Notes under the pieces: generated by a model
Told to the model about the DNA's origin: nothing
The model's input: only the letters and a program-made list of their open reading frames with translations
The model's database searches: none
Assembly (NCBI GenBank): GCA_016432625.1
Contig: CP066697.1
Span: 392,409 to 456,408, forward strand
Source: Candidatus Berkelbacteria bacterium
Lineage (GTDB): Bacteria; Patescibacteriota; UBA1384; 2-12-FULL-50-11
Reading direction: 5' to 3'
Length of the DNA stretch: 64,000 nucleotides
Made by a program: the position numbers and the translations under genes
Shown: positions 2,576 through 44,868 of the stretch, piece after piece
How the letters are laid out: every line of letters starts with the position of its first letter
Numbering within the stretch: the stretch's first letter is position 1

Positions 2576-2754
2576 GTGTGAGTTGTATCTGATTCACGAA
2601 AAACGGTCAAGGGTGTGTCCTAGTAGCTCGAAACCCAACGAGAATCTCACTCTATGTAGAACGCGCTTAATAGGTTGGAAGTGTTTTCCCTTATTGTGGA
2701 CCTGAGGGGAGTCGGACCCCTGATCCCTACAACGCGAATGATGAAATGTGGCTG

Positions 2755-2826
2755 TGGACCAGGCGGGAATTGAACCCGCTACTTCCTCAATGCGAATGAG
2801 GCGTTCTACCGATGAACTACTGGCCC
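2755..2826 (-). tRNA. tRNA-Ala (anticodon CGC)
   Basis: Reverse complement is GGGCCAGTAGTTCATCGGTAGAACGCCTCATTCGCATTGAGGAAGTAGCGGGTTCAATTCCCGCCTGGTCCA. Cloverleaf with G3:U70, a T-loop GGTTCAATTCC and anticodon loop TTCGCAT. CCA is not encoded. Confidence 0.8.
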
Positions 2827-2920
2827 TATTAATATGCTCTTCCGGGGCTCGAGCGTTGTAGGTATGCAACAGGCTCTCGCCCGCCGCAAAGGCTCGAACT
2901 AAAGCAGTTTAGTTCTCGCT

Positions 2921-2950
2921 GGCTCTGCGGCCCAGCTGAGCTAACGGCCC
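2921..2950 (-). other. tRNA-like 5' fragment (acceptor plus D-arm only), possible pseudo-tRNA
   Basis: Reverse complement GGGCCGTTAGCTCAGCTGGG..AGAGC is a canonical acceptor/D-arm, but no anticodon or T arm or matching 3' acceptor strand follows. The downstream 8-bp hairpin GAACTAAActgcTTTAGTTC is not anticodon-like. Confidence 0.25.
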
Positions 2951-3010
2951 TCGTTTCCAGCGCCCCTATCTTAACAGATGTGGGTTTCGAGAGTAAGATT
3001 GCTCCGAACA

Positions 3011-3660: not shown

Positions 3661-3743
3661 GCCGAAGTGGCGGAACGGTATACGCGGAGGTCTCAAAAAC
3701 CTCTGGGAGCAATCCCTTGTGGGTTCAAGTCCCACCTTCGGTA
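3661..3743 (+). tRNA. tRNA-Leu (anticodon CAA), type II with long variable arm
   Basis: GCCGAAGTGGCGGAACGGTA...GAGGTCTCAAAAACCTC...TGGGTTCAAGTCCCACCTTCGGTA. Anticodon loop CTCAAAA, T-loop GGTTCAAGTCC. Confidence 0.8.
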
Positions 3744-17150: not shown

Positions 17151-17222
17151 CCGACTACCACACCCTTTCCAAGCCACTAATTGCGCGGTATGCTACCCCC
17201 TGCCTGAAAAGGAGTTCCTTCT

Positions 17223-17849
17223 ATGCCGACTGATACTGAACTTGCTCGTCCATCAGATTCCGCCAAGGTTTTGAAGATCGTGCGGAACACGCCCGGTCAA
17301 AAGTACCTCATTGGCGAAGTTAACAACCTGTTTGTTGCGGCAGCGGTTCGCGAGAGCGACGGCCAGCTGCTCATCTGCCAGATGCCACACGAGGCCAACA
17401 ACAACTTGCGAGGTGCCCCGGTGCTGCCAGCTGTACGCACCGACACACCCGCACTGAACGGCGCCGCACTGCTCGCGGCACACCTCAACGACTCTTTCGG
17501 TCTTGAGGCATTTCCGATCCAACCGATCGGACACCACATCAGAACTGGCCAATGCCGGTTCCACCCTGAGGGCCCGCGCGACGTCTTTCACACCTTCTGG
17601 ATCTGCGTGATCGAGGGGGACCAGGACATCCGAAGGCTCTACGGCTACCAGTGGGCGAACTTTTGCCGTCCAAAAGACTTTCGAACGCTCGTGCACGCCG
17701 GTGGTGTTCCAACAGAGGGCATTCTCGACCAGATCGAGTTCAACAACCTTGGCGTCTCCGCCGACCGTCACCCCTTCGACGTTCTAAGCAACATCGCCAA
17801 ATACGCCGAATCCATCCACGACGGCGAGCTACTCAAGTCTATCTTGTAG
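17223..17849 (+). CDS. Hypothetical protein (208 aa), locally GC-rich
   Basis: AAAAGGAG RBS. ~60% GC against ~48% background. No recognisable motif. Lies between dinB and lexA. Confidence 0.45.
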   Translation: MPTDTELARPSDSAKVLKIVRNTPGQKYLIGEVNNLFVAAAVRESDGQLLICQMPHEANNNLRGAPVLPAVRTDTPALNGAALLAAHLNDSFGLEAFPIQPIGHHIRTGQCRFHPEGPRDVFHTFWICVIEGDQDIRRLYGYQWANFCRPKDFRTLVHAGGVPTEGILDQIEFNNLGVSADRHPFDVLSNIAKYAESIHDGELLKSIL

Positions 17850-19421: not shown

Positions 19422-19475
19422 GACTCACGACAACTTTCCCTAGGGACATTAAGTCCCGGCGGGTATACTGAATCC

Positions 19476-20000
19476 ATGGCACGCGACATGGATTTTCGAA
19501 GACCAACGCGGTCGGTGGTAAATACTGCCCCCACCACACACGGAAAAAAACCTCGCCGCACGACGTGGCCAATGCTGATGCTAGTGGTCGGGCTCGGCCT
19601 TGCTGCCGTTGGTCTTTTTGCTAGTTATTACAACAGCTCCTCCGACTCCGTTAAGCCGACGACTACAACGGACACACCCGTAACCTCGGATGAACCTAGC
19701 GGTAATTCAGCCGATGTATTTTCAAATAAAAATACTGCTTTCGAAGTCAAGATCTACGACTCGGGTGCCGGCGACGAAGCGGTAGACTCTACCACGGCAC
19801 TACTAACTGAAAAAGGATACACGGTTAAAAAGCTGGGCAAATCACAGTTTGTTTACGACAAGACTTACATTTGGCACATTCAAACTAGGCTGTCCGAGGC
19901 TCAAACAATCGGCGCTTTATTGCAGGGTAGGGAAGTCAGTTATAAAGAATCGCAGAACTCAGGTGGCTTCGAATTGTTAATTTACCTGGGCAAACAATAG
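19476..20000 (+). CDS. Membrane protein with a LytR_C (cell-envelope-related) domain
   Basis: TM helix, Thr/Ser-rich linker, then VKIYDSGAGDEAVDSTTALLTEKGYTV...FELLIYLGK, the LytR_C pattern. Confidence 0.55.
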   Translation: MARDMDFRRPTRSVVNTAPTTHGKKPRRTTWPMLMLVVGLGLAAVGLFASYYNSSSDSVKPTTTTDTPVTSDEPSGNSADVFSNKNTAFEVKIYDSGAGDEAVDSTTALLTEKGYTVKKLGKSQFVYDKTYIWHIQTRLSEAQTIGALLQGREVSYKESQNSGGFELLIYLGKQ

Positions 20001-30850: not shown

Positions 30851-31057
30851 TAATTTCGAGTGATCGAGCGAACGCGAGAATCAGACGCAAACTTCGCTAA
30901 CTCCCGAACTTAAGCCGTACAATATCCGAACAAACGCTAAAATTGAACCATATGTAGCTATTGCCCTTGACAGCCGTACGTTTAGACGTCAAAAGTGGAA
31001 GAGTCGGCACTAAAGATGCCCGCAAGGGGGCGAACAATTTTGTTTTAAAGGGGGAAG

Positions 31058-34000
31058 ATGGCCAAACAGAAAGACAAGTTTCATGATATTGCGCTGAAGC
31101 CAGTGGAGATTTCGGTTGATCTGTCAGACAGAGAGGGTAAGCCAAGCAAAGGCCTCAAACTTAACCGCCACTTTACCAAGAAGGGTAAAGATATATACGC
31201 CGACATTACCTGGGATAAGCGGACTTCCATCATTACTGACGAAAAGGGTAACCTAATCTCCCAGATTAACGACCTCGAGACACCAAGCACCTGGAGTCAA
31301 CTCGCGACCGACATCTTAGCTTATAAGTATTTACGCAAAGCCGGCGTGCCTACTCCCGAGGGCCGCGAAACCAGCGCCAAGCAGGCCGTTTACCGCATAG
31401 CACACAGCTTTGCCGATTTCGGCGAGAAGTTTGGTTATTTCGCTTCCAAAGACGACCGTATGACTTTTGAGGAAGAGTTGAGTTATCTGTTAATCACTCA
31501 GCGAGCCGCCTTTAACTCTCCTGTGTGGTTCAATGTCGGCCTGCATCATCAATACGGCATTCAAGGGCAGGGTGGGGGATTCTATTGGAATTTCGCCGAA
31601 GAGAAAGTGCTCGAAACTGAAACCGCTTATCGCAACCCTCAATGTTCGGCCTGCTTTATCTTGGCCGTTAGAGACTCCTTACCAGACATTTTTGAACTGA
31701 TTAAGACCGAATCGCATATCTTTAAGTATGGTTCCGGCTCCGGTGCCAACTTCGCCCCTTTACGCAGCCGCTTCGAGAAGCTCTCCGGCGGCGGTAAATC
31801 ATCCGGCATGATGAGTTTCCTCAAGGTCTTCGACCGAGCGGCCGACTCTGTTAAGAGTGGCGGTACGACTCGCCGTGCAGCCAAGATGGTTGTTGTCGAT
31901 CTGGATCACCCAGAGATTGAGGACTTCATTAACTGGAAGGTTCGTGAGGAACGCAAAGTCCAAGCAATGATTGAGGCCGGTTATCCATCTGATTTTAACG
32001 GTGAGGCCTACGGCACTGTTTCTGGCCAAAATTCTAATAACTCAGTGCGCGTGACGGATGAGTTTATGAAAGCCGTCGAAAATGATGGTGAGTGGTCAAC
32101 TCGCACTCGCACTAACGGCGACATCTACAAAACCTACAAGGCCCGTGAACTAATGGATATGATCGCTAAAGCCGCTTGGCAGTGCGCCGATCCAGGAATG
32201 CAGTTCGACACTACCGTTAATGAGTGGCATACCTGCCCCAATACTAACCGTATTAACGCCTCAAACCCGTGTAGTGAGTATATGTTCCTCGATGACTCGG
32301 CCTGTAACCTAGCTTCAATTAACGTTGCGAAATTTGTTGATGAAGCTGGTAATTTCGACATTGCCGGTTATCGTCACGCCTGCCGCACGGTCTTTATCGG
32401 TCAAGAAATTGCCGTTGATTTCTCGGCGTACCCAACTAAAGCCATTGCCCAAAATAGTCACGACTACCGCCCGCTAGGACTAGGCTATGCCAACCTCGGC
32501 ACCCTACTGATGCTACGAGGCGTCCCGTACGACTCTGAACAAGGCCGAGCTATCGCTGGGGCCTTAACGGCTATAATGTGCGGCCACGCCTACAAAACTA
32601 GCGCCGAGATCGCCGCCGTCAAAGGGCCGTTCAACGGTTACGCAAAAAATCGTGCCCCAATGTTAAACGTTATGCGTAAACACCGGGCAGCTGCTTACCG
32701 GCTTGACGAAAAAGCTTGTCCAAACGATATCTTAGAAGCCGCCAGGCAAGATTGGGACGAAGCCGTGGCGCTTGGCGAGCAATTCGGCTACCGCAACGCC
32801 CAAGCTACAGTCATCGCGCCGACGGGAACAATCGGCCTACTAATGGACTGCGATACTACCGGCATCGAACCCGACTTCGCCCTAGTTAAATATAAAAAGC
32901 TCGCCGGCGGTGGCGGTATGAAAATTGTTAACAACGCCGTAACTCGCGCTTTGGCAAATCTTGGTTACACGCCCGAGCAACAGAAAGACATCCTGACTTA
33001 CGCTCTCGGCAACGGCACCCTAAACAGCGAGACGCCGATTAATCGTTCGTCCCTGCTCGCTAAAGGATTAACTGAGGACGAAATTGCTGCTGTGGAGCGT
33101 AATTTGCCAGCTGCTTTTGATATCCGACACTCTTTCAACCGCTACGTTGTTGGAGACGCAGCAATGGAGCGCCTTGGCGTTACCAGTGAAGATGAGGCTG
33201 ATCCAGGATTTTCTCTTCTAAATAAACTTGGTTTCAGCGAGATTGAGATCGAGCAAACAAACCAAGTTATCTGTGGCACACAGATGCTTGAAGGTGCGCC
33301 CCATCTTAAAGAAGAGCATTATCAAGTGTTCGACTGCGCCAATAAATGCGGCGCTCACGGTACTCGTTTCTTGAGCCCAATGTCACACGTTAAGATGATG
33401 GCCGCTGTTCAGCCGTTTATTTCCGGTGCCATCTCTAAAACCATCAACATGCCGCATGAAGCCACCGTGGAGGAAGTGAAGGACGTTTACATGCAATCGT
33501 GGAAGCTCGGCGTCAAGGCCATGGCCCTGTACCGCGACGGCTCTAAACTTAGCCAGCCGCTGAACGTTCAAAAGAAAAAAGACGAGGACAAGCCCGAGGC
33601 AGTTGAGACGCCCGCGGCTGGTATCTTTGTGCCACGGCGCCGCCGTTTGCCTGACGAGCGCAAAGCCGTGACACATAAATTCAACGTTGGTGGCCACGAA
33701 GGCTATCTAACGCTCGGATTCTTCGAGGACGGCACCCTGGGCGAGATCTTCATTACCATGTCCAAACAAGGCAGCCTTATCTCCGGGCTGATGGATGCCT
33801 GGGCCGCAACGCTATCCGTGGCGATGCAGTACGGAGTACCAGCCTCAACTTGGGTGCGTAAGTTCATGAACGCCCGGTTTGAGCCGTCTGGCTTCACTAA
33901 GAACCCTCAAATCAGGATTGCGAAGTCGATCATTGATTATGTCGCGCGTTACATTGGCTTGAAATGTTTGACGCCAGAGGAGCAGTACGAACTTGGCCTA

Positions 34001-34285
34001 ATTAACGAAGCGCCTAATCTTGTAAGTGACAGCGCTCCCAGCGTCAACACTACCGCACCCGTAGTGGAACAGGTTACTCAAGAGGAAGCCGCACCAACCA
34101 GCGAGCCCCTAATCTCACCGGTATCAGCTCCGAGTAATCAAGCCGAGCTGCCGATCGTGGATGGGGAAAAATCTAAATCAAGTGACGCACCAATTTGTGC
34201 GAAATGTGGCAGCTTAATGCGGATGAAAACCGGCTCTTGCTACACCTGCACTAACTGCGGCAATACTTCCGGCGGCTGCGGATAG
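31058..34285 (+). CDS. nrdJ: Class II (adenosylcobalamin-dependent) ribonucleotide reductase NrdJ with a C-terminal Zn-ribbon
   Basis: NPCSEYMFLDDSACNLASIN is the class II active-site Cys/Glu region. C-terminal CAKCGSLMRMKTGSCYTCTNCG. Confidence 0.85.
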   Translation: MAKQKDKFHDIALKPVEISVDLSDREGKPSKGLKLNRHFTKKGKDIYADITWDKRTSIITDEKGNLISQINDLETPSTWSQLATDILAYKYLRKAGVPTPEGRETSAKQAVYRIAHSFADFGEKFGYFASKDDRMTFEEELSYLLITQRAAFNSPVWFNVGLHHQYGIQGQGGGFYWNFAEEKVLETETAYRNPQCSACFILAVRDSLPDIFELIKTESHIFKYGSGSGANFAPLRSRFEKLSGGGKSSGMMSFLKVFDRAADSVKSGGTTRRAAKMVVVDLDHPEIEDFINWKVREERKVQAMIEAGYPSDFNGEAYGTVSGQNSNNSVRVTDEFMKAVENDGEWSTRTRTNGDIYKTYKARELMDMIAKAAWQCADPGMQFDTTVNEWHTCPNTNRINASNPCSEYMFLDDSACNLASINVAKFVDEAGNFDIAGYRHACRTVFIGQEIAVDFSAYPTKAIAQNSHDYRPLGLGYANLGTLLMLRGVPYDSEQGRAIAGALTAIMCGHAYKTSAEIAAVKGPFNGYAKNRAPMLNVMRKHRAAAYRLDEKACPNDILEAARQDWDEAVALGEQFGYRNAQATVIAPTGTIGLLMDCDTTGIEPDFALVKYKKLAGGGGMKIVNNAVTRALANLGYTPEQQKDILTYALGNGTLNSETPINRSSLLAKGLTEDEIAAVERNLPAAFDIRHSFNRYVVGDAAMERLGVTSEDEADPGFSLLNKLGFSEIEIEQTNQVICGTQMLEGAPHLKEEHYQVFDCANKCGAHGTRFLSPMSHVKMMAAVQPFISGAISKTINMPHEATVEEVKDVYMQSWKLGVKAMALYRDGSKLSQPLNVQKKKDEDKPEAVETPAAGIFVPRRRRLPDERKAVTHKFNVGGHEGYLTLGFFEDGTLGEIFITMSKQGSLISGLMDAWAATLSVAMQYGVPASTWVRKFMNARFEPSGFTKNPQIRIAKSIIDYVARYIGLKCLTPEEQYELGLINEAPNLVSDSAPSVNTTAPVVEQVTQEEAAPTSEPLISPVSAPSNQAELPIVDGEKSKSSDAPICAKCGSLMRMKTGSCYTCTNCGNTSGGCG

Positions 34286-35045: not shown

Positions 35046-35594
35046 ATGAAGATCTACACGCGAGCAGGCGACGGGGGAGAGACGGGCTTGCCGGGCGGCA
35101 GGCGACTTAAGAAAACCGACGAGGTATTCAAATGCCTCGGAGATTTGGACGAGGCTAACGCAGGTCTGGGTTTGGCCATTAGCCAAATAGACGCCGAAAA
35201 TCTGAAATTTCCCGTCCAACAGCTGTACGAACTTCAGTCTAATTTACTGTCGATTGGCGCCTTGATCGCCTCAGACGACCCATTACGAAGCCCAATATTA
35301 AAGCGTCTAGACAAGTTAACCGACAAGCTAGAATCGCAGATTGACGATTGGGATAAAAGGCTACCGCCGCTGAAGAATTTTATTTTGCCCGGCGGCTCAC
35401 AATCGGGCGCTAGTCTACACTTCTGCCGCACTTTAATTCGCCGCGCTGAGCGTTCGTATCAAGCGTTAACGGACGAAAAAGTAAAGATTATTGTCGTTGG
35501 TCGTTATTTAAACCGCCTTAGTGACTACTTATTCCAAGCGGCTCGCTTCGCCAATCATCTAGCAAATTATCGTGAACAAATCTGGCAGCAATAG
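35046..35594 (+). CDS. PduO-type ATP:cob(I)alamin adenosyltransferase
   Basis: MKIYTRAGDGGETGL...VFKCLGDLDEANA is the PduO N-terminal signature. Confidence 0.8.
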   Translation: MKIYTRAGDGGETGLPGGRRLKKTDEVFKCLGDLDEANAGLGLAISQIDAENLKFPVQQLYELQSNLLSIGALIASDDPLRSPILKRLDKLTDKLESQIDDWDKRLPPLKNFILPGGSQSGASLHFCRTLIRRAERSYQALTDEKVKIIVVGRYLNRLSDYLFQAARFANHLANYREQIWQQ

Positions 35595-35621
35595 CTGTAA
35601 GATTCGCCATTAAAACCCTTG

Positions 35622-35800
35622 ACTCTAATAATCAGGTTTGGTACTATGCCAGCGTAAATTAAAAGGTCTGAAATCTTCCTGTGTCGCTGGAAGTATCGGT
35701 TAAGTTTGCCGAGATAGCCCCCTCCCGTCTCGACAGCTTGCCGGTACTTTTAGCAACACAGCCTAAAAAGACCTCCCTCGCGGAGGTCTTTTTAGTTGGG
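35622..35800 (+). promoter_or_regulatory. Promoter plus structured leader ending in an intrinsic terminator (riboswitch or attenuator candidate) upstream of the ECF-S-like gene
   Basis: cccTTGACTctaataatcaggtttggTACTATgcc, then a ~140-nt leader (GCCAGCG...CGCTGG stem; CGAGA...TCTCG hairpin), then AAAAAGACCTCCctcgcGGAGGTCTTTTTA ~50 nt before the ATG. Confidence 0.35.
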
Positions 35801-35847
35801 GGAAGGATGCTTGTGATTTTTTAGCGAGTCGGTATGCTGGAAACTAC

Positions 35848-36402
35848 ATGTCTGCGACTACTCAACTCGGAAAACCATCGGCGCTAGCGCTTATTGTAAT
35901 ATCAGTTATTGGCCGTCTGATTCCGCACCCAGCCAACTTTACGCCGCTCGGCGCCACAGCACTTTTTGGCGGCTCCAAACTGGAGCGCCCCTGGAATTAT
36001 TTGGCACCACTTTTCGTGCTGTTCGTAACAGACCTAATCATCGGACTGCACGGCACAATGCCCTACGTGTACGGCGCATTCGTCTTAAACGTTTGGTTAG
36101 GCGAGAGGCTTCTTAGTAAACGTCCTAAAATGTTGCGGGTAGCCGGAGTTGGCCTAACGGGAGCGGTGATGTTTTTCATCATCAGCAATTTCGGAGTCTG
36201 GATGGAGGGAGTGCTCTACCCGAAAACTTTGCTCGGCCTTATCGATTGTTATATTGCCGCCCTGCCTTTCTTCACTAACACATTAGCCGGTGATTTAATC
36301 TTTGCAGTTAGCTTCTTTGCCCTGTATCAATTTGCCGAAAATCGCTCGCTGACACAAAAATTTGACAAAACTGTTGTCGAATGGCTAGTTGTAAATAGAT
36401 GA
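35848..36402 (+). CDS. Six-TM membrane protein, ECF-transporter S-component/BtuM-like (substrate unknown)
   Basis: 184 aa with six hydrophobic helices. Downstream of the leader and adjacent to the B12-dependent genes. Confidence 0.4.
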   Translation: MSATTQLGKPSALALIVISVIGRLIPHPANFTPLGATALFGGSKLERPWNYLAPLFVLFVTDLIIGLHGTMPYVYGAFVLNVWLGERLLSKRPKMLRVAGVGLTGAVMFFIISNFGVWMEGVLYPKTLLGLIDCYIAALPFFTNTLAGDLIFAVSFFALYQFAENRSLTQKFDKTVVEWLVVNR

Positions 36403-36683
36403 GTATGGTCAAACTTCTAGATTTTTGGGCAGCTTGGTGTGGTCCGTGTAAGATAATGAACCCGATTATTGAAGAGATCGAGAAAGAGTTTGTTGGCAAG
36501 ATCGTTATCGAAAAAGTTGATGTGGATGCAGCCGAGAATCAACAGAAAGTGCAGGATTACCAAGTCGGGGCAATGCCTACCTACATCATTGAGGCTAACG
36601 GGGAAGTAGTTGAACAATTCATCGGGGCGCAACCAAAATCCACTTTAGTTAAAGCTCTGAATCACGCGCTCGAAAACAACTAG
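36399..36683 (+). CDS. trxA: Thioredoxin (short form)
   Basis: WAAWCGPCK active site. 94 aa and lacks the usual first beta-strand and helix. ATGA overlap with the upstream membrane-protein gene. Confidence 0.8.
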   Translation: MSMVKLLDFWAAWCGPCKIMNPIIEEIEKEFVGKIVIEKVDVDAAENQQKVQDYQVGAMPTYIIEANGEVVEQFIGAQPKSTLVKALNHALENN

Positions 36684-44399: not shown

Positions 44400-44868
44400 C
44401 GCGGCTGACAATTTCACCGTGCGATTTTGGATTGCGGACGGACATTGAGTCGTCTAAAAATAAAAAACGCGTCCTAGGCCAAATTTGACCTAAAGTTATA
44501 TTTTACAGGTATAAAACATATACTTATCAACGACCGGGCGCGTCAGAACAGGTGATTACCGATAAGGGCAATATGCTAACGGGGTTGCTGTTGGGATAGC
44601 GATAGCGACAACAAGCCCCGACAGCACGATGAGAATTACAACAGAAGAAATGTCGCACAATGTATCTTGTGCGACATAAAGTAGCAAAATATCATTTATT
44701 GGCTTTTCGAGAGACCCTTCAAATAAGGGCTTAATTCAGGTGAACGAGCAGCCGGTATCCAAGAGTACCGGGGAGGGTTTCCGGAAACTTTACAAAAATT
44801 ATTTCACTCATATCCCCTCCCTCCTCTGCCGCGAAAAGGGGAGGGGGACTTAAAAAGAAATTTATTAG

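Follow-up and report, generated by a model that had tools for sequence, protein, structure and literature searches.

A covariation-supported hairpin RNA family, uncatalogued in Rfam 15, in a B12 gene cluster of CPR bacteria

Described RNAs with a similar location or a similar loop

Cobalamin riboswitches of the families RF00174 (Cobalamin) and RF01689 (AdoCbl-II) occupy the slot upstream of DUF6580-type transporter genes within nrdJ/pduO clusters, in the orientation of these genes and followed by a terminator or ribosome-binding-site region. The RNA described here comes from a 64-kb stretch of Candidatus Berkelbacteria DNA that was analysed as a whole (hereafter the window) and shares this location, its neighbours in an nrdJ cluster being pduO on one side and a BtuM-like DUF6580 gene on the other. 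Unlike the cobalamin riboswitches, it consists of one helix and has no B12 box, four-way junction or kissing-loop partner. Membership of their clan (CL00101) was rejected, since the leader gave no covariance model match and displays neither a GCCACUG B12 box nor a multi-helix junction; the DNA form of the box, GCCACTG, is absent from 35595-35847, in agreement with the initial annotation.

Two other described RNAs share parts of the architecture. The Phe leader (RF01859), which gave the best Rfam score, is likewise a long hairpin followed by an intrinsic terminator; the window RNA, however, contains no conserved leader peptide or Phe codon run and is found in an unrelated context. Guanidine-II (mini-ykkC) riboswitches are a known case of a conserved-loop hairpin that acts as a sensor, and they comprise two short tandem hairpins whose ACGR tetraloops kiss each other. 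The window RNA resembles them in that conservation is focused in the loop of a covarying stem upstream of transporter genes, whereas it forms one hairpin with a very long stem and a C-rich loop of 8-11 nt that is unable to self-pair.

The closest resemblance in the loop itself is to C-rich small RNAs (sRNAs) of Firmicutes. In S. aureus RNAIII and RsaE/RoxS, unpaired UCCC/C-rich motifs bind Shine-Dalgarno sequences and block the initiation complex (PMC2790875). Similar to RNAIII with its hairpins 7, 13 and 14, to RsaE/RoxS and to other Rsa RNAs (PMC2790875), the window RNA is predicted to be a short transcript with its own promoter (P1) and Rho-independent terminator, both of which are predicted in all subtypes, with a second promoter (P2) for the downstream genes in type A (subtypes are defined below). 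As in the Firmicutes RNAs, conservation is highest in an unpaired UCCC/CCCC stretch that sits in a hairpin loop and has complementarity to Shine-Dalgarno sequences; in the 17 homologues it is the CCCCUCC of the apical loop. The differences are a single loop on a stem of 30-45 bp, as opposed to several short hairpins or linkers, and an occurrence in CPR/Patescibacteria at a fixed position beside a B12 transporter gene. Rfam revealed no homology to RsaE or another catalogued sRNA beyond chance terminator matches, and the window RNA can be an analogue of RsaE/RNAIII-type sRNAs at most, not a member.

Searches at the gathering score of Rfam 15 yielded no family for this RNA, and no cobalamin riboswitch in the window or in the homologous loci L001-L005, in keeping with the initial annotation, which had assigned the leader to no class. 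Scans at E<=10 of window positions 35500-35900 and of positions 2700-3000 of homologous locus L002 returned no TPP, cobalamin or other riboswitch match and gave only a sub-threshold Phe_leader, terminator look-alikes and miRNA-precursor hairpins, whereas the same scans did find cobalamin families in 24 other DUF6580 loci. Our literature searches retrieved no published account of this RNA or of CPR/Patescibacteria riboswitches or sRNAs of such a kind. By the Rfam scans, a degenerate member of a known family is effectively refuted as an explanation. The B12-related genomic context would suit a cobalamin riboswitch, but neither the window leader nor L002 matches the cobalamin or TPP models at E<=10. 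The Phe_leader match reaches 27.6 bits, half of the gathering score of 55, and its alignment covers only the generic hairpin and terminator, without a conserved leader open reading frame (ORF). The TPP riboswitch (RF00059), which is defined by a pyrimidine-sensor arm (CUGAGA) and a pyrophosphate-sensor arm, had been brought up in the initial annotation by way of the 11-mer ATGCCAGCGTA, the sole resemblance to its consensus, yet this segment turned out to be the -10/discriminator region of the promoter.

The B12 locus and its homologues

The RNA element is sited in the 253-nt spacer between pduO and DUF6580 (Table 1). The start of trx overlaps the DUF6580 stop codon by 4 nt, which suggests that the two genes are co-transcribed. 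An AlphaFold (AF2) model of the DUF6580 protein reached a pLDDT of 94, and Foldseek matched it to the ECF S-components FolT and BtuM with a TM of ~0.6 and a probability of 1.0, at E-values of only 0.02-0.5. Cobalamin or AdoCbl-II riboswitches are present in 24 of the 60 DUF6580 homologous loci in other phyla, often directly upstream of the gene; examples in DUF6580 or nrdJ/pduO contexts include L007, L015, L027, L038, L040 and L044. Judging from these riboswitches and from the modeled S-component-like fold, DUF6580 is very probably a corrinoid transporter. A literature search on DUF6580 found nothing. Together, nrdJ, pduO, the BtuM-like DUF6580 gene and the thioredoxin gene appear to be a set for B12 scavenging and deoxynucleotide synthesis in reduced-genome organisms.

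Table 1 Features of the RNA element and its gene neighbourhood in the window.
Feature	Position	Strand	Basis
nrdJ, B12-dependent class II ribonucleotide reductase, head of the cluster	31058..34285	+	NCBIfam NF005122 and TIGR02504, above cut-offs
purN-like gene, between nrdJ and pduO		-
pduO, PduO-type ATP:cob(I)alamin adenosyltransferase, upstream neighbour of the RNA	35046..35594	+	Pfam PF01923; TIGR00636 above cut-off
P1 -35 hexamer, TTGACT	35619..35624	+	Promoter scan
P1 extended -10, TGG TACTAT	35639..35647	+	Promoter scan; TG before second hexamer
P1 -10 hexamer, TACTAT	35642-35647	+
GC-rich discriminator GCCAGCG with predicted transcription start (~35654-35656)	35648..35656	+	Position relative to -10 box
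A/U-rich 5' segment that differs in length and sequence between homologues	35657..35678	+	Alignments
Long hairpin of ~33 bp with three small bulges, core of the RNA family	35679..35761	+	MFE and centroid folds, covariation
Helix half GUAUCGG with conserved U.G wobble, pairs with CCGGUAC	35693..35699	+	Invariant in types A and B
Apical loop AGCCCCCUCCC	35716..35726	+	Homologue alignments
CCGGUAC, 3' partner of GUAUCGG	35741..35747	+	Alignments, covariation
Intrinsic terminator: A-run, GACCUCC, loop CUCGC, GGAGGUC, U5	35765..35793	+	Fold
P2, TTGTGA, 16 nt, TATGCT, candidate promoter of DUF6580-trx	35811..35838	+	Type A conservation
DUF6580, membrane protein with ECF S-component / BtuM-like fold	35848..36402	+	Pfam PF20221, E 1.5e-48
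trx, thioredoxin	36399..36683	+	Pfam PF00085; synteny kept in homologous loci

From DUF6580 relatives and one metagenome pattern scan, we obtained 17 distinct homologues, all of them from CPR/Patescibacteria and in bins that carry the labels Berkelbacteria, Saccharibacteria or Patescibacteria. The pattern scan gave two true matches (L092 and L094) next to three GC-rich chance matches (L091, L093 and L095). The homologues fall into type A (the window, L001, L081, L084, L086, L087 and L089), type B (L090, L094 and L096), type C (L002, L003, L004 and L098) and variants (L099, L005 and L097), with L100 being the same contig as L099. The initial annotation had proposed a check for homologous leaders upstream of the same membrane-protein family, and these exist and covary: all 17 copies lie between pduO and DUF6580, in clusters of the order nrdJ...pduO-RNA-DUF6580-trx, and on the same strand. 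This placement directly upstream of DUF6580 is as expected of a cis-regulator and is a point against a trans-acting sRNA. In L089 an extra ORF is found between pduO and the RNA, and the RNA remains beside DUF6580.

We built a covariance model on types B and C, and it recovered all 17 homologues, with 61-83 bits on the + strand vs 23-37 bits on the - strand. It detected no second copy elsewhere in the 64-kb window and none in 75 more distant DUF6580 loci. On viral contigs a loose pattern gave >120 chance matches, and the covariance model found no real instance in 80 loci among the matches listed. The RNA is not universal, as the 195-nt spacer of L013, a more distant Berkelbacteria locus of the order RNR-CobA-like-DUF6580-trx, is unstructured (z -0.28).

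Hairpin, promoters and terminator

The core of the RNA is a hairpin of 83 nt. The CGAGA/UCUCG hairpin of the initial annotation exists as the tip of this longer structure in MFE and centroid folds and by covariation, with CGAGA (35710-35714) and UCUCG (35728-35732) forming its invariant apical part. On the other hand, the closing helix that had been drawn between GCCAGCG (35648-35654) and CGCUGG (35685-35690) had to be given up. It is absent from the MFE and centroid folds, and in seven related leaders it shows 0 compensatory changes and 9/42 broken cells. CGCUGG covaries with UUUUAGC of the 3' strand of the long hairpin, while GCCAGCG comprises the 7 nt directly 3' of the -10 box and is therefore the discriminator/start region, probably largely untranscribed from P1. 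Compared with shuffled sequences, the whole leader folds with a z-score of -4.9 to -5.2, and none of 200 shuffles was as good.

The apical loop of the window RNA is 11 nt long. Its core, CCCCUCC, resembles the ribosomal anti-Shine-Dalgarno sequence and is unchanged in 17/17 homologues, where it is closed by a G-C pair. The stems are wholly different among types A, B and C while this core stays fixed, and the loop sequence occurs only once within the 64-kb window. A second fixed element is the wobble helix, whose consensus GURUCG/CGRUAC is present in all types; in L084 and L087 the wobble of GUAUCGG is replaced by U-A. The distance from this helix to the loop is 19 nt in type A vs 5-7 nt in types B and C. 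The consensus structure is a single unbranched helix, and the anti-Shine-Dalgarno-like C-rich loop on its rigid stem is the only universally fixed single-stranded element.

Covariation supports the helix throughout. Aligned types B and C show double, compensatory changes at 16 of 26 pairs, with 94.8% of cells paired, vs 80% in shuffles (0/500 reach the observed value) and ~45% when the partner strand is slid. Type A is 95.7% paired with five compensatory pairs. The type A core is 90-98% identical, compared with 58-72% for the flanking coding sequences, and judged by these identities it is under strong purifying selection that exceeds the selection on neighbouring genes. Overall, this is a real and strongly conserved RNA family of CPR bacteria, supported by covariation, uncatalogued in Rfam 15 and situated in a B12 gene cluster.

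The strand of the RNA is the + strand, as indicated by the U.G wobbles and the strand-asymmetric covariance model scores. The same data bear on an explanation at the DNA level, in which the hairpin would have no dedicated RNA function and would be a palindrome or operator, a repeat or, for pduO, a strong bidirectional terminator or an insulator. In the window pduO has no other terminator before P1, and several short-read contigs break inside the hairpin, as they do at long inverted repeats. Nevertheless, we consider this explanation very improbable, as G.U and U.G pairs are mismatches in DNA or on the other strand, the asymmetric loop is invariant across lineages with differing stems, and the element has a dedicated conserved promoter. 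A dispersed repeat can also be dismissed, since the window has a single copy and 75 other loci have none. A leader peptide was also considered and rejected: the 47-codon ORF at 35681-35824 is not preserved in homologues, where indel lengths are not divisible by three and the loop is read in differing frames.

P1, the 30-45 bp hairpin and the terminator are common to all homologues. The promoter scanner found P1 as it had been read in the initial annotation, a near-consensus, TG-extended TTGACT-17-TACTAT with a 17-nt spacer. The hexamers are conserved in the homologous loci, with TTGAC invariant and TTTGGTAYTAT kept in type A leaders, while the sequence of the spacer varies. The scanner re-detected P1 at the homologous place in L084, L005, L089, L002, L100 and L096. 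For the 5' segment between the predicted start and the hairpin, the homologue alignments displayed no conserved structure.

The strong intrinsic terminator proposed before the coding start is evident in the fold as a GC-rich stem-loop and U-run (35770-35793) preceded by an A-run (35765-35769). In L001, L081, L084, L086, L087 and L089 the terminator stems differ yet stay complementary, and a T-run follows in every case. The pattern scanner missed the window terminator, probably due to pairing of the A-run with the T-run, and it detects the equivalent terminators in L002, L100 and L096. An additional terminator upstream of P1 in L089 leaves the RNA bracketed. In type C the segment between hairpin and terminator is variable in length and sequence.

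A second promoter, P2, is predicted between the terminator and the DUF6580 ATG. In all type A leaders the 50 nt from terminator to ATG hold TTGnnn-16-TATGCT with constant spacing and variable spacer sequence, ending 9-15 nt before the ATG (9 nt in the window). The scanner reported P2 at the homologous place in L084, L005 and L089, compared with 0.3-0.4 expected by chance; with 8/12 matches, the window copy is just under the cut-off. A (C)GGTATGCT or GGTATACT box as in P2 also stands before other genes in the window, at distances that suit a promoter or a leaderless transcript. No Shine-Dalgarno sequence was found before DUF6580 in the window or in type A leaders, and P1 read-through transcripts would thus be poorly suited for translation. 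Taken together, the conservation of P2, the missing Shine-Dalgarno sequence and the L089 terminator before P1 argue for the RNA being a transcription unit in its own right, with DUF6580-trx expressed from P2 as an almost leaderless transcript.

In L002, L100 and L096, which represent types B/C and a variant, the scanner detects P1 and the terminator only, and the ATG of type C is preceded by a Shine-Dalgarno-like AGGAAG box. The DUF6580 gene of types B and C may depend on terminator read-through. Both observations are points against an sRNA reading and in favor of a cis-acting leader.

A free-standing RNA or a leader of DUF6580

The initial annotation proposed the leader as a candidate riboswitch or attenuator of unknown class. 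One part of this proposal stands, as the RNA is conserved, structured, absent from Rfam and always upstream of DUF6580 on the same strand. The other part fits poorly with a single near-perfect hairpin without junction or pocket, with the missing conserved antiterminator and with a P2 located past the terminator. The element looks more like a free-standing regulatory RNA than a riboswitch.

Our tentatively favored reading, which is possible and not yet probable, is a free-standing sRNA whose C-rich loop would pair with G-rich Shine-Dalgarno sites by analogy with RsaE and RNAIII. Most P1 transcripts would end at the intrinsic terminator and yield a stable RNA hairpin of ~140 nt (+ strand, roughly 35654-35793), while P2 would drive separate transcription of DUF6580-trx into an almost leaderless mRNA. 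The stem, long and rigid, would present the anti-Shine-Dalgarno-like loop, and pairing of the loop with G-rich ribosome-binding sites of target mRNAs would block initiation.

Within the cluster, nrdJ (AAAGGGGGAAGAUG) is a candidate target, joined in relatives by trx (GGAGG, GGGGG). Over 7 bp the loop matches G-run ribosome-binding sites, that of nrdJ among them, and the trx ribosome-binding sites of relatives are G-rich, but such complementarity is generic. As the 64-kb window also contains no extended trans target of the loop, the assignment of nrdJ and trx as targets remains putative. The GGGAGGGG sites at 44813 and 54813 were rejected as targets because they are not gene starts. Within the leaders we found no universal cis partner of the loop either: the possible partners, which are the ORF start, an arm of the terminator, a G-run past the terminator and a GGAGG on the 5' side, each occur in some lineages only.

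The length of the stem deserves attention, as 30-45 bp is far longer than the display of a seed needs and is a point against the sRNA reading. Such a duplex would be an RNase III substrate and suggests that the RNA may work differently, for instance by binding a protein or by being processed. The RNA might then be a decoy or sponge, or a processed stable RNA, with no role for base pairing: an RNA-binding protein (e.g. a KH-type poly-C binder) would recognize the loop and the wobble helix, or RNase III would cut the duplex. This would account for a sequence that is itself fixed in the GURUCG/CGRUAC helix and in the loop, beyond what pairing demands, for the ~45 nt of helix that are invariant in type A and exceed the needs of base-pair maintenance, and for the lack of a specific RNA target in the loop-partner survey and the 64-kb window. 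We regard it as unlikely, however. It is wholly conjectural, the examined loci share no conserved gene for an RNA-binding protein in the cluster, and the type-dependent distance between helix and loop is awkward for a single footprint.

The sRNA reading must above all be weighed against a cis-acting leader of a new class, either a riboswitch or a factor-dependent attenuator, that would functionally replace the cobalamin riboswitch of the DUF6580 family. P1 transcripts would either end at the terminator or continue into DUF6580-trx, with the hairpin or its loop sensing a corrinoid-related signal or binding a factor. Besides the invariable position upstream of DUF6580, which is kept even in L089, and the loci in which only P1 and the terminator were detected, the comparison with cobalamin riboswitches speaks for such a leader. 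These often lie directly upstream of DUF6580, and in L044 an AdoCbl-II riboswitch occupies the same syntenic slot, in the order nrdJ-pduO-riboswitch-small secreted protein-DUF6580. This equivalence of slots keeps a cis-acting, B12-related role alive. In L094, moreover, a U-run comes after the hairpin itself, and a 5' hairpin could, as we read that sequence, compete with its base. The loops of L002 and L099 show complementarity to the terminator's G-rich 3' arm (-18.5 kcal/mol).

The cis leader is nonetheless doubtful in our view. The loop-terminator complementarity is absent in L003, L004, L084, L087 and L089, and in most members the terminator is separate from the hairpin. Neither the leader folds nor the loop-partner survey of homologues gave a conserved alternative pairing between hairpin and terminator or a conserved antiterminator. 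A near-perfect helix with a loop offers no junction, internal loop or conserved pseudoknot for a corrinoid, and the Rfam scans of the window leader and L002 at E<=10 gave no cobalamin, TPP or other riboswitch signal. P2 of type A, lying past the terminator, would bypass the control, yet it is in type A that sequence conservation is strongest; the variable hairpin-terminator region of type C likewise fits poorly with a leader. The more specific proposal that a new cis-regulatory class, responsive to corrinoids directly or via a factor, displaced the cobalamin riboswitch before DUF6580 in one CPR branch seems quite improbable.

If the RNA is an sRNA, the strategy of setting a C-rich loop against Shine-Dalgarno sequences would reach far outside the Firmicutes. 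A cis element would instead represent a new way to achieve B12-dependent control, and a corrinoid-responsive class, should it exist, would have a far simpler architecture than the cobalamin riboswitch, with one long helix and a C-rich loop. Finally, the ties of DUF6580 to cobalamin riboswitches, in combination with its ECF S-component / BtuM-like fold, suggest a testable role for this protein family as a corrinoid transporter.

Cobalamin riboswitches at DUF6580 loci

In the 64-kb window, two tRNA genes were the only Rfam matches at gathering score. Some other loci encoding DUF6580, the likely corrinoid transporter, carry cobalamin riboswitches. In CPR bins of the Microgenomates type, DUF6580 comes after a gene whose 100-135 amino acid product is a secreted or membrane protein, and an AdoCbl-II riboswitch precedes that gene. 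This set adjoins nrdJ and pduO, and together they form a compact B12-uptake and RNR module. The Bacteroidota-type loci L027, L038 and L040 each contain two cobalamin riboswitches closely flanking the DUF6580 gene, one upstream and one downstream.

Features of the window and of the compared DUF6580 loci
Feature	Sequence	Position	Strand	Remark
tRNA gene	window	2755-2826	-	Rfam gathering score
tRNA gene	window	3661-3743	+	Rfam gathering score
Candidate promoter/leaderless-start sites	window	35811-35850, 17180-17225, 19455-19478		shared -10 box
Shine-Dalgarno-like segment and mini-ORF	window	35798-35824
nrdJ 5′ region	window	30960-31057
Inverted repeat	window	44810-44850
AdoCbl-II riboswitch	L009	2344-2422		Microgenomates-type CPR bin
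AdoCbl-II riboswitch	L019	2384-2453		Microgenomates-type CPR bin
AdoCbl-II riboswitch	L044	2491-2562		Microgenomates-type CPR bin
Paired cobalamin riboswitches	L027, L038, L040	~2580-2860 and ~3490-3740
Extra segment before DUF6580	L090	1720-2000
NrdJ	L098	1-1269		1521 aa

Transcription and translation starts

In the window, the promoter that appears to drive DUF6580 ends 9 nt 5′ of the ATG of this gene. Neither the DUF6580 start codon nor that of pduO, its upstream neighbor, is preceded by a Shine-Dalgarno sequence. The -10 box of the DUF6580 promoter, GGTATGCT or GGTATACT, recurs 6-24 nt 5′ of other start codons in the window. Many mRNAs of this Berkelbacteria genome may be leaderless or nearly so.

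Immediately 3′ of the terminator of the conserved hairpin RNA lies GGGGGAAGG, which is rich in G and resembles a Shine-Dalgarno sequence. A mini-ORF of five codons (ATG CTT GTG ATT TTT TAG) comes next and overlaps the -35 box of the candidate DUF6580 promoter. The G-run of GGGGGAAGG is common to the window and the type A homologue L001 only, and the mini-ORF is not conserved. In the type B homologue L090, ~250 nt of extra sequence with two more strong hairpins separates terminator and DUF6580.

Words resembling or complementary to the RNA loop

The 5′ region of nrdJ, which heads the cluster, contains a -35-like box (CCCTTGACA) similar to that of the RNA's promoter. G5 runs occur there twice, as AAGGGGGCG and as the ribosome-binding site AAAGGGGGAAG. 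Both runs are complementary to the loop of the RNA; the ribosome-binding site of the L100 homologue reads AAAGGAGGGTGG. C-rich and G-rich words of the loop also reappear elsewhere in the window, in an inverted repeat (TCCCCTCCCTCC...GGGGAGGGGGA) that precedes an A/T-rich stretch and looks like a terminator hairpin separating convergent genes.

NrdJ intein and contig ends in relatives

NrdJ of the Berkelbacteria relative L098 contains an intein with HNH/NUMOD3 homing-endonuclease domains. Three independent short-read contigs (L082, L083 and L085) end, at position 1 of each, within or just past the long hairpin, which probably reflects assembly breaks at this long inverted repeat. Through such breaks, the RNA could be under-represented in assemblies.
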